From Deltaproteobacteria bacterium (lineage in GTDB: Bacteria > Desulfobacterota > Syntrophia > Syntrophales > UBA2210), in NCBI GenBank assembly GCA_016933215.1, contig JAFGBH010000096.1, forward strand, positions 17,788-81,787: 64,000 bases of DNA, given 5' to 3'. Shown here piece after piece: positions 22,910-32,989 of this stretch (its first letter is position 1; every line of letters starts with the position of its first letter). A program made the position numbers and the translations under genes. The notes under the pieces are model-generated. The model was not told the DNA's origin. It saw only the letters and a program-made list of their open reading frames with translations, and made no database searches.

Positions 22910-23461
22910 TTGGATAGGTACAAAGGGCACTGCTCCACATTGTTTAAAAGCGTTTTTCGTTATGTTGCTCTCGATGTTGAGACAACGGGTCTGTCTCCCC
23001 GAAAAGGTCATAGGATAATCGAAGTAGGGGCAGTCGCCATTGAATATGGGAAACCAGTAGGAGAATTGTCGAGTCTTGTAAATTCCGGTAGAAAAATACC
23101 ATGTCAGACTGCGCGAATACACGGAATAACCGATGCAATGCTCACTAATCAGCCTTTGCCCGATGAAATAATGCCACGATTATGGGATTTCCTGAAGGAC
23201 AGTATTGTAATCGCCCATAATGCAAGGTTCGATGTTGAGTTTCTCAGACATGAATTTGGACTAATTTCATTACAGTTGGAGAATAAGGCTGTCTGTACAC
23301 TGGAAATGAGCAGAAAGCTCTATCCAGGGTTGCCCAATCACAGGCTCAATACCGTTTACAGATATTTGTTTGGAGAAAAGCCCGCGAATGTTCAAAGGCA
23401 TCGGGCGCTCGATGATGCGAAGATGACTGCCGCAATATGGCTTGAAATGGTTAAGCGATGA
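22910..23461 (+). CDS. DnaQ-like DEDDh 3'-5' exonuclease (DNA polymerase III epsilon-like), stand-alone, coupled to cas3
   Basis: 183 aa with a TTG start. The three motifs are ExoI ALDVETTGL, ExoII IAHNARFDVEFL and ExoIII HRALDDAKMTA. Its stop TGA overlaps the cas3 ATG (ATGA at 23458-23461). Confidence 0.8.
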   Translation: MDRYKGHCSTLFKSVFRYVALDVETTGLSPRKGHRIIEVGAVAIEYGKPVGELSSLVNSGRKIPCQTARIHGITDAMLTNQPLPDEIMPRLWDFLKDSIVIAHNARFDVEFLRHEFGLISLQLENKAVCTLEMSRKLYPGLPNHRLNTVYRYLFGEKPANVQRHRALDDAKMTAAIWLEMVKR

Positions 23462-26238
23462 ATAATGCGATAAAGGGCTATTATAGATATTGGGGCAAGG
23501 CGAGTTTCTCCGAAGGTGGCAATGATTCCTGTCATCTGCTCCCATATCACTGCCTTGATGTAGCAGCAGTGGGAGGAGAATTGTTGCGTGATGATGAGCG
23601 CCTGTGCCGCATATTGACAGAGATGACAGGGCTTGGAAAAGGCGTCATTGAAAACTGGTTGATGCTTTTTCTTGCCCTCCATGATGTTGGAAAATTTTCG
23701 GAGGGATTCCAGAATTTAAGAAGCGATCTTCTTTTGAGACTCCAAGGCCGTAAGAGCGATAAAACTTATTCTGTGCGACACGATTCTCTCGGATATCTCC
23801 TGTGGAAGAAACGTCTGTGGGATGTAGTGTGGACAGAAGGGTTTCTGGGTATTGATTCTTCGGAAAACGAAAAGAGATCGTGGGAGCGGACATTCGATTG
23901 CTTTGCTCAGGCTGTCACCGGGCACCATGGAAAGCCCCCAGAAAAAGAGGGCGCTAATAACTTAAGCCTTTCATTTAGCAGGTACTTTGGAACGGTTGAA
24001 ACAGTCGCATCTGAAGAATTTGTCTGTGATGTTGGAAAACTGTTCAGAAGAGAGAAAGTTACGCAGTTCAGTCTTTCTCCCAAAGAACTTAGGGGCAGTA
24101 TCCAGCGGGCATCGTGGATGCTTGCCGGAATAGCTGTGCTTAGTGACTGGATTGCATCGGGTTATTATTCATTTCATATGGAACCGTTGCCTTTTGAAAA
24201 ATACTGGCACCAATATGCCGTACCGGGGGCGAAAGAGGCAATAGCGAAAGCGGGGATTCTTCCCGCCGAGGCAAATAGAAATACATCGTTCAGTGTCCTT
24301 TTCCCATCCATCAAGAACCCAACCTCCCTGCAAAACAAGGCTGCAACCTGCCATATTAAAAGAGGCCCTCAGCTTTTTATTCTTGAGGACATAACCGGTT
24401 CAGGCAAGACCGAAGCTGCCCTGATACTTGCAAGCAGACTCATAAATGAGACTCACGGATCGGGGATTTATGTTGCGCTGCCCACAATGGCAACTGCAAA
24501 CGCAATGTATGATCGTCTGTCCTTGGCATACCGAAAACTATTTACAGATGAATCAATTCCTTCCCTTGTGCTTGCCCACAGCGCCCGTCATCTGTCAGGT
24601 GTGTTTCGAGAATCCATTCTTGATCAGGACGCGGCAAAGGATTCCAGCTACGATAACGGCGATGATTCCGCGACGGCCCTGTGCTCAGCATGGATTGCGG
24701 ACAACCGCAAGAAGTCTCTCCTTGCCGACGTCGGTGTGGGCACACTGGATCAGGCCCTGCTCGCGGTTTTGCCTTCCCGGCATCAGTCTCTGCGGTTGCT
24801 GGGGCTTTCGAGGCATATCTTGATAGTCGATGAAGTCCATGCATATGATTCATACACGCTTATGTTACTGAAAAATCTTCTTCAGTTCCATTCTGCCATG
24901 GGCGGGAGCGCCATACTCCTGTCAGCCACCCTACCTCTCGGAGTCAAACAGGACCTTATTGACAGTTTCAGCGAAGGGATGGGCCTCACACCGACGAGTC
25001 TTAACAAGAGGGATACCTATCCACTCTTTACGCATCTTTCTTCCAATGAAACGATTGAAGCACCAGTCGAAGATTATGAGGGCGTCAAGAGTTCTGTTGA
25101 CATTAATTTTATACATGACTCTCATAAAGTGTTAAAAATTATAGTGGATTCAGCAAGTGCCGGGCAATGTGTATGCTGGATCCGCAATACCGTGGATGAT
25201 GCAATGGATGCGTATGATGTATTGAAAGGTAGATTAGATCCCTCGCGATTAATCCTGTTTCATGCGCGATTTGCGATGGGAGACCGCCTCTCAATCGAAG
25301 AAAAGGTGCTGAAGGTCTTTGGGAAAACGAGCGGCTCAAATGATCGTGAAGGAAAGATTCTTATAGCAACACAGGTGGTAGAACAATCCCTTGACCTCGA
25401 CTTTGACGTAATGATCACAGACCTTGCACCAATTGACCTGATTATTCAGCGTGCGGGAAGGCTTCACCGTCACAGGCGCGATATCCATGGGAATCCGATA
25501 GTTGCTGGGAATATGCCGGATCAACGAGGGCTACCTTGCCTAAACATTTTTTCACCGCGTCTTGATATAGAAATAAAGAACGATTGGTATAAAACTGTGT
25601 TCCCGAAAGCCGCCTGGGTTTATACAAGCCATGGTCGATTGTGGCTAACGGCAACCTTGCTGGACAAAAAAGGGGGGTGGACAATGCCGGATGATGCTCG
25701 GGAGTTGATAGAGGCAGCTTTTTCCGATGAGCCTGAAACGACAATTCCTCCGCCCTTGCAGGAGCGGGACATGGAATCAGACGTGCAGGATATGGTTAGC
25801 AGATCTCTTGCAAAGATAAATGTGCTGAAATTGGAGGATGGCTACAGTGTTACACTAAATCAATGGCTCGACGATACCCAGGCAATGACGCGTCTCGGTG
25901 AGATAATGACAACGGTAAGGCTGGCAAGATGGGATGGAAAAGCATTGAGGCCCTGGTACGACAGGGGTGATTTCCCGTGGAACTTGAGCCAGGTTAATAT
26001 AAACGCCAAAAGAGTTTACTATGAAATGGAAGATAAGGATGCCGATGCCGGTCTGGCCGATGCCGTGCAATCCCTGAAATCAAAACTTGCCGACCGGGGG
26101 AAGTGGACAGTCCTCGTTCCTTTGACAAAGGTTGAAGATGAATGCTGGGAAGGATACGCAAGAAACATGCAGGGCGAAAGAATTACTTTGCTGTATTCAC
26201 CAGATACCGGTTTGAGATTTTACAGAAAGGGGAGATGA
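23458..26238 (+). CDS. cas3: CRISPR-associated helicase/HD nuclease Cas3, type I-E
   Basis: 926 aa. It has the HD domain (LPYHCLDVAAV, LHDVGKFS, VTGHHG), Walker A ITGSGKTEAA and the DEAH-like box LIVDEVHAYD. Confidence 0.95.
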   Translation: MNNAIKGYYRYWGKASFSEGGNDSCHLLPYHCLDVAAVGGELLRDDERLCRILTEMTGLGKGVIENWLMLFLALHDVGKFSEGFQNLRSDLLLRLQGRKSDKTYSVRHDSLGYLLWKKRLWDVVWTEGFLGIDSSENEKRSWERTFDCFAQAVTGHHGKPPEKEGANNLSLSFSRYFGTVETVASEEFVCDVGKLFRREKVTQFSLSPKELRGSIQRASWMLAGIAVLSDWIASGYYSFHMEPLPFEKYWHQYAVPGAKEAIAKAGILPAEANRNTSFSVLFPSIKNPTSLQNKAATCHIKRGPQLFILEDITGSGKTEAALILASRLINETHGSGIYVALPTMATANAMYDRLSLAYRKLFTDESIPSLVLAHSARHLSGVFRESILDQDAAKDSSYDNGDDSATALCSAWIADNRKKSLLADVGVGTLDQALLAVLPSRHQSLRLLGLSRHILIVDEVHAYDSYTLMLLKNLLQFHSAMGGSAILLSATLPLGVKQDLIDSFSEGMGLTPTSLNKRDTYPLFTHLSSNETIEAPVEDYEGVKSSVDINFIHDSHKVLKIIVDSASAGQCVCWIRNTVDDAMDAYDVLKGRLDPSRLILFHARFAMGDRLSIEEKVLKVFGKTSGSNDREGKILIATQVVEQSLDLDFDVMITDLAPIDLIIQRAGRLHRHRRDIHGNPIVAGNMPDQRGLPCLNIFSPRLDIEIKNDWYKTVFPKAAWVYTSHGRLWLTATLLDKKGGWTMPDDARELIEAAFSDEPETTIPPPLQERDMESDVQDMVSRSLAKINVLKLEDGYSVTLNQWLDDTQAMTRLGEIMTTVRLARWDGKALRPWYDRGDFPWNLSQVNINAKRVYYEMEDKDADAGLADAVQSLKSKLADRGKWTVLVPLTKVEDECWEGYARNMQGERITLLYSPDTGLRFYRKGR

Positions 26239-26239
26239 A

Positions 26240-31806: not shown

Positions 31807-32107
31807 AAATGCTCCGTCCCGACTGAGAGGCCGACTGGCTCTGTGGCTTCTGGAAGTGCGAGCCGGCGTCTATGTGGGGAAGGTGTCACGGCGTATTAGG
31901 GAGATGATATGGGAGAACGTTGAAGTCGGGATTAATAATGGAAATGCGGTTATGGCCTGGACGACCAATACAGAATCAGGGTTTGATTTTCTGACGCTCG
32001 GCTCGAATCGACGGATCCCAGTCGAAGTGGACGGAATAAAGCTGGTATCATTCCTGCCGGAAACAGATGATTCTGTATCGACCAAATCTAAGGAAAACGG
32101 TTCCTAA
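31787..32107 (+). CDS. cas2: Cas2, type I-E
   Basis: (M)[42 protein letters not shown] parallels E. coli Cas2. The ATG at 31787 lies 8 nt after AAGGAGGG, and the ORF-track start is GTG 31784. It overlaps the cas1 end. Confidence 0.93.
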
Positions 32108-32167
32108 AAAGTTGGTAGAAAGTATCGATCTTTGAAAACTTAATATTGCCGAATATATACGAGAAGT
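32108..32167 (+). promoter_or_regulatory. CRISPR leader (60-bp AT-rich spacer between cas2 stop and first repeat)
   Basis: The position and AT-richness are as in E. coli-type I-E loci. No motif could be verified. Confidence 0.55.
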
Positions 32168-32989
32168 ATGTTCCCCGCATACGCGGGGATGAACCGGTAT
32201 CCATCAGCGGCATTGGTATCTATAACAAATGTTCCCCGCATACGCGGGGATGAACCGAACCGAGAACCGACATAACCGTAACGTGGGAAATGTTCCCCGC
32301 ATACGCGGGGATGAACCGGCGATACTGGATGGCAGAAAGACCGTCACCCGATGTTCCCCGCATACGCGGGGATGAACCGATACACCAATTAAATAAGCCT
32401 TATTATAACTAATGTTCCCCGCATACGCGGGGATGAACCGCATTATTTTGTTATTAACCTCCAAAAAAGGGGATGTTCCCCGCATACGCGGGGATGAACC
32501 GTCCTGTAATATGTTGCTGTCTTTATAGAGGTCATGTTCCCCGCATACGCGGGGATGAACCGTAGCTCCCGCAAGTCTATCCTGGGCTATAGTAATGTTC
32601 CCCGCATACGCGGGGATGAACCGCTATTGGAATAGTTCGCCTTTTTATAGTTCATATGTTCCCCGCATACGCGGGGATGAACCGACATTTGATCTTGTCC
32701 TTCGGCTCGTACTCATATGTTCCCCGCATACGCGGGGATGAACCGCCTTTTAGCGCGTCCTTCAGGTGACGGTGAAAATGTTCCCCGCATACGCGGGGAT
32801 GAACCGTTCCCGAATTTCGTCTACTAAGTCAATCGGATATGTTCCCCGCATACGCGGGGATGAACCGGGAAAATACAATGTCTTAACTACTCTGAAGGCA
32901 TGTTCCCCGCATACGCGGGGATGAACCGCTACGGTAGACGAGTCGCCTGTGTCAACGGTAATGTTCCCCGCATACGCGGGGATGAACCG
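32168..32989 (+). CRISPR. Type I-E CRISPR array, 14 repeats / 13 spacers
   Basis: The 29-nt repeat ATGTTCCCCGCATACGCGGGGATGAACCG recurs at an exact 61-nt period (32168, 32229 ... 32961). All 14 copies are identical, and the spacers are all 32 nt. The repeat has the I-E stem CCCCGC/GCGGGG. Confidence 0.97.

Follow-up and report, generated by a model that had tools for sequence, protein, structure and literature searches.

A type I-E CRISPR-Cas system and a DEDDh exonuclease gene between the att sites of a tRNA-Phe-integrated island in an uncultured deltaproteobacterium

Does a complete type I-E CRISPR-Cas system in a Syntrophales genome belong to the host chromosome, or is it the cargo of a mobile element? 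The system lies in a 64,000-nt stretch of DNA (hereafter the window) from an uncultured, sulfate-reducer-like Deltaproteobacteria bacterium (assembly GCA_016933215.1, contig JAFGBH010000096.1, positions 17,788 to 81,787). A first-pass annotation of this DNA had placed the locus on a tRNA-integrated island, had read it as recently acquired or actively adapting, and had suggested that it moves with the element and may serve competition between elements. From our analysis, the locus is likely to be part of a 20-kb integrative element at the 3' end of a tRNA-Phe gene, in which a phage-type maintenance module is combined with a cargo block holding the complete I-E system and a DEDDh exonuclease gene. 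The features are collected in Table 1.

The island is bounded by two direct repeats, attL and attR, which are 97% identical over 88 nt and lie 19,989 bp apart; their first 50 nt are identical. The tRNA-derived part of the repeat (an exact 34-mer) occurs twice in the window against 0 occurrences expected, and the terminator variant of the attR type is TTGATATGAAGGGGTTAGCCAC. The features of a tRNA island are present together: an integrase gene beside an intact tRNA gene, att repeats that duplicate the 3' end of the tRNA gene, and an atypical composition. Measured as L1 tetranucleotide distance to the 44 kb of flanking DNA, the backbone of the island is at 0.267, compared to 0.136 ± 0.017 (maximum 0.183) for host segments of equal size, and the cas block is at 0.217, compared to 0.127 ± 0.015 (maximum 0.162). 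Both are outliers by more than 5 standard deviations. The placement of the I-E locus between attL and attR by the first-pass annotation is thus borne out by the 88-nt repeat and by the integrase at tRNA-Phe. Recombination of attL with attR by the integrase would excise the CRISPR system together with the rest of the element.

At least 562 metagenome relatives, 60-78% identical, show the integrase to be one of a large family. Most of the best 80 relatives have a gene for tRNA-Leu, -Arg, -Phe, -Lys or -Thr immediately beyond the 3' end of their integrase gene. The nearest relative (L093, 78%) is also at a tRNA-Phe gene, and its Cro and Xis-like proteins are 81% and 65% identical to those of the island. 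Cas genes, the Rep gene and pfkB are missing from all 80 of these sibling loci. Since the siblings reside at tRNA genes with other genes aboard, the recombination module is common and its cargo is variable.

The backbone is the minus-strand third of the island (13.7-20.7 kb), with an integrase, two helix-turn-helix regulators of the Cro/C1 and AlpA types, a second HTH_17 protein that is likewise AlpA/excisionase-like, a replication initiator and several orphans. Four iteron-like 19-nt repeats (TGCCATTTTTGGCAACAGT and variants, at 16327-16408), detected by TRF and repeat search, lie within the gene for the lambda-O-like initiator; the iterons of the lambda origin are likewise inside the O gene. 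This Rep protein gave only one partial match in IMG/VR (48% over 110 residues). The largest backbone protein, of 379 residues, has 10 homologues besides itself, and its AlphaFold2 model has a predicted local distance difference test (pLDDT) score of 69.7. No virion, packaging or conjugation family was found among the island proteins in Pfam and PHROGs, and in a PADLOC scan of these proteins the DEDDh protein was the sole match, with no other defence family beyond it and Cas. Because virion and conjugation genes are absent, transfer would have to rely on a helper. We infer that the island belongs with satellite-like or 'hitcher' elements: it has the integrase, regulator, AlpA-like protein and initiator with origin, lacks virion genes and falls into the 7-20 kb class. 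Because genes for helper packaging or capsid hijacking were not found in Pfam or PHROGs, we class the element as an integrative and probably helper-dependent island rather than as a phage-inducible chromosomal island (PICI).

The eight Cas proteins all match NCBIfam type I-E equivalogs over nearly the full profile, and seven exceed the curated cut-off. The exception is Cas3, which scores 511.7 bits and stays below the 569-bit equivalog cut-off of NF007248; it passes the cut-offs of cas3_HD (residues 28-234) and cas3_core (residues 307-689). These models agree with the complete cas3-cse1-cse2-cas7-cas5-cas6e-cas1-cas2 set in E. coli order that had been described before. The beginning of the locus had been assigned differently: position 22910, taken as the start of cas3, is the longest-open reading frame (ORF) start of a DEDDh exonuclease gene that the earlier reading missed, and cas3 begins at 23458. 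The stop of the DEDDh gene overlaps the cas3 start by 4 nt. For cas7e, the longest ORF begins at 28327, yet homologues align from the Met at 28393. Every ORF between cas3 and the array is accounted for; there is therefore no Cas4, and the Cas1e/Cas2e pair is Cas4-less.

Cas1, Cas2 and Cas7 had been described as strikingly close to the E. coli K-12 proteins. This holds for Cas1 (68% identical) and Cas2 (66%) but not for Cas7, which is 33% identical to CasC. Cse1 reaches 124.7 bits with the E. coli-type equivalog, whose cut-off is 576. The adaptation module is therefore E. coli-like and the interference module is not. Our comparison set consisted of 80 genome loci recovered with Cas3, from Desulfobacterota, Gammaproteobacteria, Nitrospirota, Fibrobacterota and methanogenic or anaerobic methanotrophic (ANME) archaea. 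Across this set, identity to the Cas1 of the window is 66-88%, and identity to its Cas3 is 42-52% save for one locus at 82%. A recent exchange with enterobacteria as the source of the Cas1/Cas2 likeness was considered and rejected, since Cas1 proteins of 66-88% identity occur in 60-odd loci from many phyla. The relatives of Cas3 and Cse1 are dispersed over unrelated phyla, archaea included. Cas3 relatives of about 50% identity were seen in metagenome-assembled genomes (MAGs) of Methanoperedenaceae and ANME-2, and a Cse1 79% identical to that of the window was seen on a 2.7-kb contig of a 'Thermoplasmata archaeon' MAG (P0131). Either this I-E clade has spread across domains or these archaeal relatives are artefacts of binning.

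The DEDDh gene encodes a stand-alone protein with the motif residues DxE, HNAxFD and Hx4D. In PDB it is closest to the PolC exonuclease, DnaQ and the Cas2-DEDDh fusion (8FY9 domain, E 2e-13). Stand-alone DEDDh genes have been described as widespread CRISPR ancillary genes, and the fused Cas2-DEDDh trims prespacers and removes the protospacer adjacent motif (PMC10284694). Four of the 80 I-E loci have a clear DEDDh gene, and they are exactly the four best Cas1 matches (81-88%). In three of these four, Cas3 and Cse1 are only 43-45% identical to those of the window, and in one of the loci (L057) the DEDDh gene is upstream of cas1. DEDDh presence tracks a Cas1 subclade despite divergent Cas3 and Cse1, which ties it to the adaptation module. 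By analogy, the DEDDh protein most likely trims prespacers with Cas1-Cas2. Homologues of 60-62% identity were also found outside I-E loci: in L091 (10001-13481) the gene is immediately upstream of a cas3 of about 730 codons that heads a type I-C locus with Cas4, and in L191 (8001-10776) it is immediately upstream of a 732-codon cas3 of similar domain make-up, with no further cas genes visible before the contig end. The linkage of DEDDh with cas3 therefore crosses subtypes. In all, the DEDDh family comprises about 1,470 members at E <= 1e-3.

The array contains 14 exact copies of the 29-nt repeat ATGTTCCCCGCATACGCGGGGATGAACCG with a start-to-start spacing of 61 nt. Its palindromic 29-nt repeats, 32-nt spacers and AT-rich upstream leader fit type I-E, and no further repeat-like copies occur elsewhere in the window. 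All 14 repeats are identical, including the leader-distal one, and all 13 spacers are exactly 32 nt, as had been reported. The conclusion drawn from this, that the locus was recently acquired or is actively adapting, is not sustained. In relatives, a complete array of 30 identical repeats (L189) and a complete array of 25 repeats (L075) also lack a degenerate terminal repeat, while three others (L185, L001 and L035) have one variant repeat each, ending in C or A; in addition, other assemblies of the population carry the identical array. Since terminal repeats are intact in long arrays of relatives, their identity is no sign of youth. A query with the 3' end of cas2, the leader and repeat 1 aligned at 82-87% to L185, L189/L190 and L001.

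Nothing in the sequence argues against an active system: the full-length ORFs, the conserved leader region and the intact DEDDh motifs would all be compatible with activity. The system most likely functions as a canonical I-E system. Cas6e would process the 61-nt units, Cascade with 32-nt guides would recruit Cas3 for DNA degradation, and Cas1-Cas2 would insert new spacers at the conserved leader. The DEDDh protein would trim the 3' ends of prespacers in trans, as Cas2-DEDDh fusions and E. coli DnaQ/ExoT do. The targets would be chiefly tailed phages, going by the one spacer that could be traced.

Table 1. Coordinates of island features in the window
Feature	Position	Strand	Evidence
tRNA-Phe (GAA), intact, integration target	13572..13647	+	ARAGORN; Rfam tRNA 70.8 bits
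attL: 88-nt direct repeat (3' 48 nt of tRNA-Phe + terminator hairpin)	13600..13687		repeat search
Tyrosine integrase, abuts tRNA-Phe	13662..14762	-	PF00589 E 4e-24; phrog_1 integrase E 4e-53
Cro/C1-type HTH regulator	14759..14968	-	PF13443/PF01381; PHROG transcriptional repressor; 81% identical in L093
HTH_17 (AlpA/excisionase-like) protein	15007..15252	-	PF12728 E 7e-10; phrog_66 excisionase/regulator
Lambda-O-like replication initiator	15970..16713	-	PF04492 E 7e-22; phrog_678/277
Second HTH_17 protein	16738..16929	-	PF12728 E 3e-6
379-aa protein	17139..18278	-	no Pfam, PHROG or PADLOC match
C39-peptidase-like gene	19026..19553	-	PF03412 E 2e-16; no PADLOC or PHROG match
FGase-fold (N-formylglutamate-amidohydrolase) gene, overlaps C39-like gene	19550..20335	-	PF05013 E 2e-12; no PADLOC or PHROG match
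Small transcription unit, copy 1: promoter-like site, CCUCC motif, 13-bp terminator hairpin	20849..20983	+	
pfkB-family hexose/1-phosphofructokinase-like kinase	21341..22279	+	TIGR03168 E 6e-90
89-aa ORF	22331..22600	+	59% identity over 56 aa to sibling integrase-family element L145, E 2e-14
Stand-alone DEDDh (DnaQ-like) 3'-5' exonuclease, 173 aa	22940..23461	+	PF00929 E 3e-35; PADLOC 'DEDDh, CAS-associated' E 1e-40
cas3 (HD nuclease + helicase)	23458..26238	+	NF007248 E 4e-153
cse1/cas8e	26240..27811	+	TIGR02547 E 4e-107
cse2/cas11	27866..28369	+	TIGR02548 E 8e-26
cas7e	28393..29463	+	TIGR01869 E 1e-105; PDB 9uer_E E 3e-110
cas5e	29470..30195	+	TIGR01868 E 3e-52
cas6e	30200..30883	+	TIGR01907 E 2e-46
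cas1e	30886..31806	+	TIGR03638 E 9e-116
cas2e	31784..32107	+	TIGR01873 E 1e-35
Leader, 60 nt, between cas2 and repeat 1	32108..32167	+	sequence
CRISPR array: 14 repeats of 29 nt, 13 spacers of 32 nt	32168..32989	+	
Small transcription unit, copy 2: 12/12 sigma-70 promoter with TG, CCUCC motif, 13-bp terminator	33185..33323	+	
attR: partial tRNA-Phe 3' end + terminator hairpin	33589..33676		repeat search

The origin of the spacers was examined in several databases. The 13 spacers, concatenated, gave only chance-level blastn matches (E >= 0.4) to 50,697 GenBank phage and 72,556 PLSDB plasmid records, and no spacer matched elsewhere in the window or in the 80 sibling integrase elements. IMG/VR was scanned with seed patterns of spacers 1, 2, 3, 6, 7, 12 and 13 in which the five flipped-out positions were masked. 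Zero matches were obtained with spacers 1, 2, 6, 7, 12 and 13. The pattern of spacer 3 matched 12 IMG/VR contigs, and 11 of the matches lie in frame within members of a single gene family (phrog_874, E 1e-57) that has the N-terminal motif AILDGRKTxTRR, their mismatches being at codon third positions. The best match (29/32, mismatches at spacer positions 18, 24 and 30) is on L178, a contig with further genes for a major head protein, a portal and a large terminase. The flanks of these homologues of a single protospacer are CAT (L178), CGG and AAA, with AAG in two contigs matching at 26/32. A weak match of spacer 12 (24/32) on the same L178 contig is without codon periodicity and is suggestive only. 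TRF reported a period of 122 nt in the array, and the reverse complements of spacers 6 (32502-32533) and 8 (32624-32655) can be read as similar peptides (xYKxxN). These two spacers may come from homologous genes of two related phages; their similarity is below the 17/32 threshold.

The cargo block makes up the right 60% of the island and consists of the pfkB kinase gene, the 89-residue ORF, the DEDDh-cas operon and the array. The pfkB gene has a guanine-plus-cytosine (GC) content of 55%, higher than the 47% of the island and the 50% of the host, and appears as an odd metabolic cargo with a separate origin. A link to the PfkB-family gene near one of the DEDDh relics described below (L089) was rejected because similarity is undetectable. 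Two small transcription units of about 100 nt stand exactly on either side of the 12.3-kb segment that runs from pfkB to the array. The two are paralogous, being 84% identical over 89 nt with an identical 13-bp terminator stem, and they share the anti-Shine-Dalgarno-like motif CCUCCUUUUGUA. The promoter of copy 2 is a perfect TTGACA-16-TGnTATAAT. Neither unit has an Rfam match (Rfam found only the tRNA in the window) or a copy in any other fetched locus. The units may be small RNA genes, and, being duplicated, they are the obvious candidate for a recombination substrate through which cargo is lost or gained.

The nearest CRISPR modules have the same DEDDh-cas3...cas2-array layout, with 79-86% identity in Cse1, 89% in Cas1 and repeats that differ only in the loop. 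They are found in other contexts. The L185 module follows YjeF, CoA-transferase, AbiEii-like, ERCC4 and major facilitator superfamily (MFS) transporter genes, and the L189/L190 module follows an ImmA-like HTH-peptidase gene and a DUF3368 gene. Relics were also identified. L088 (10001-10680), between fatty-acid-synthesis and thioredoxin genes, holds the DEDDh gene, 46 cas3 codons and then 21 nt identical to the repeat of the window; this arrangement implies that the entire operon and array were deleted between cas3 and a repeat. L089 (10001-10920) and L090 (1488-2407) retain DEDDh and a 116-residue HD stump. These modules and relics in other contexts indicate that the CRISPR block is exchangeable, and that it moves and decays independently of the integrase element. 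The same locus outside an island in close relatives had been named in advance as the finding that would speak against the mobile-cargo proposal. Such loci do exist (L185, L189/L190 and the L088 relic), but in other organisms and not in sister strains.

Other assemblies of the same population are available: the MAG GCA_016938315.1 (JAFGUT010000034 and JAFGUT010000025), a further contig of 86,953 nt, and the Logan assemblies of SRR13394436 and SRR13394437. Wherever they cover the window, their identity to it is 99.985-100%, and the coverage takes in the left junction, the island backbone and the array with its complete set of 13 spacers. Short Logan contigs break off at the att repeat, which is expected of a repeat and carries no information on presence/absence polymorphism. 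In the host flank, genes at 39327-43703 (minus strand) encode BcrAD/BadFG-type activase and HGD-D dehydratase-family proteins, and AMP-ligase and branched-chain ATP-binding cassette (ABC) transporter genes follow. By their annotation, these genes would be consistent with an anaerobic lifestyle of degrading aromatic compounds or acyl-CoA.

Several results weigh against parts of the reading of an integrative element carrying a canonical, phage-directed I-E system. Among the contigs sharing the flanks, which exact-protein look-ups of the flank genes traced to one population, neither an empty site nor an attP junction nor a sister strain without the island turned up. No helper-hijack or packaging gene (terS, ppi/cpm-like) was recognised in Pfam or PHROGs, and the AlphaFold2 model of the 379-residue protein has no fold match in PDB at E <= 0.001. 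One of the 13 spacers could be traced to a gene family, and for the other 12 the phage, plasmid and IMG/VR searches gave no target; the L178 flank is CAT rather than AAG-type, which marks L178 as related to the true target but distinct from it. Finally, in each of the seven DEDDh family members sampled, the next gene downstream is cas3 or a cas3 stump and not cas1, a placement unexpected for an enzyme that only helps Cas1-Cas2. From this position, from the two intact members outside I-E and from the retention of DEDDh with the cas3 stump after deletion of a locus, one can construct a different view, in which DEDDh is a distinct family working with Cas3, rather than or besides Cas1-Cas2, and the carrier is a helper-dependent satellite-like element that moves complete adaptive immunity between hosts. 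One possibility is that such a Cas3-linked exonuclease could make prespacers from the DNA fragments left by Cas3, linking interference with primed adaptation. We regard this combined view as improbable. The lack of an empty site, together with the identity of island and array in all assemblies of the population, the failure to find transfer genes in Pfam or PHROGs, and the persistence and decay of related modules at ordinary chromosomal sites, would also fit a fixed, domesticated defence island that is no longer mobile, the CRISPR-Cas system being now a chromosomal host locus with scars of an integrase era. This is unlikely in our estimation: the integrase, Cro, Xis-like and Rep ORFs are full-length compared to their families, the 50-nt att core is identical in both copies, and the composition has not drifted toward that of the host.

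A different doubt concerns history. The CRISPR block and pfkB may have been joined secondarily to the integrase element, in which case 'cargo' would describe the present structure only. Two routes can be imagined: two elements could have integrated in tandem at tRNA-Phe, after which the middle att site and the second integrase were lost, or the parts could have been joined by homologous recombination through the duplicated promoter-terminator unit. The exact bracketing of the 12.3-kb segment by the paralogous units speaks for a secondary joining. A composite origin is also suggested by gene orientation (minus strand throughout the backbone, plus strand throughout the cargo), by the complete absence of cas genes from the 80 sibling loci, by the close relatives of the module in unrelated contexts, and by the difference in composition, the L1 distance between backbone and cas block being 0.194 and pfkB having its own GC content. 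The tandem route finds no trace in the window, where a third tRNA-Phe fragment was not detected even with up to 3 mismatches allowed; the sequence after copy 1 of the small unit is dissimilar to the stretch between copy 2 and attR; and the ORF directly upstream of DEDDh has a homologue in a sibling element. Such a composite history is a possibility that we hold as doubtful, and in either case the CRISPR block is today enclosed by the att sites. Judged from this arrangement, the block is cargo in the structural sense. The proposal that the locus moves with the element accordingly stands as far as it describes an att-bounded, compositionally foreign cargo; the whole 20-kb unit may have moved as one. 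The competition between elements suggested by the first-pass annotation has fared worse. That the array chiefly serves the island against rival plasmids, islands or satellites, and not phage defence, could be argued from the 12 spacers without an assigned target and from the benefit that defence systems on mobile elements can bring to the element itself (PMC8791490). The only traceable spacer, however, fits a tailed-phage gene family on a contig with head, portal and terminase genes, and no spacer matched the plasmids, the sibling elements or the window. This one spacer thus favours ordinary antiviral defence, and the rivalry scheme seems very unlikely. The integrative element with a canonical I-E system as its cargo is the reading that we retain.

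That type I-E loci are uncommon on mobile elements, as the first-pass annotation had it, is not supported: for Vibrionaceae, mobile elements were reported to carry 88% of the I-E loci (PMC6360697). Among them is GI-24 of V. cholerae, a 17-kb excisable island with a type I-E CRISPR-Cas system active against phages (PMC6360697). Like GI-24, the island in the window holds the complete I-E system and array inside integrase- and att-bounded ends, so that they would be excised together; excision of GI-24 was shown by polymerase chain reaction (PCR), whereas that of the window island is predicted from sequence. GI-24 is inserted between two protein-coding genes and not in a tRNA gene, its order is cas3-cas8e-cse2-cas6-cas7-cas5-cas1-cas2, and neither a DEDDh gene nor an O-like replication module was reported for it. 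With the I-E system of E. coli K-12, the locus shares the gene order, 29-nt repeats of the same register with conserved ends, 32-nt spacers and the Cas1/Cas2 type. In contrast, Cas7 and Cse1 are far apart (the best solved relative of the window Cas7 is 9uer), and a DEDDh gene linked to cas is lacking in E. coli, where host DnaQ/ExoT are used.

The Cas2-DEDDh trimmer-integrase of Megasphaera NM10 (PDB 8FY9; PMC10284694) is likewise a DnaQ-like DEDDh protein in a Cas4-less I-E locus, but the window DEDDh is a separate protein of 173 residues encoded upstream of cas3 and is not fused to Cas2. It matches the profile of stand-alone CRISPR-associated DEDDh genes (PADLOC/CRISPRCasTyper). The island also resembles phage satellites, PICI-like and 'hitcher' islands (PMC13376191, PMC11389934) in being about 20 kb and att-bounded, with an integrase, regulators, an AlpA-like protein and an initiator with internal origin, and in carrying a defence system as cargo without structural genes. 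It differs from them in having no recognisable packaging or capsid-redirection genes or known helper, in the co-orientation of the integrase and regulators, and in its complete class 1 CRISPR-Cas system, which at 9 kb would be an unusually large satellite cargo.

Type I-E systems on excisable islands, defence cargo on satellites and helper-dependent elements, and stand-alone CRISPR DEDDh genes are all already known, and our findings do not overturn current views. The island is a clean example, from an uncultured anaerobic lineage, of class 1 immunity with its own predicted trimming exonuclease as exchangeable cargo, and the carrier is a small tRNA-targeting integrative element with a phage-type replication module. 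The constant position of DEDDh directly upstream of cas3 gives a small testable lead for the biochemistry of adaptation in Cas4-less systems. The life cycle of the module is documented at several stages, with an island here, chromosomal sites in relatives, and relics consisting of DEDDh, a cas3 stump and half a repeat, and it informs how CRISPR-Cas systems are gained and lost.

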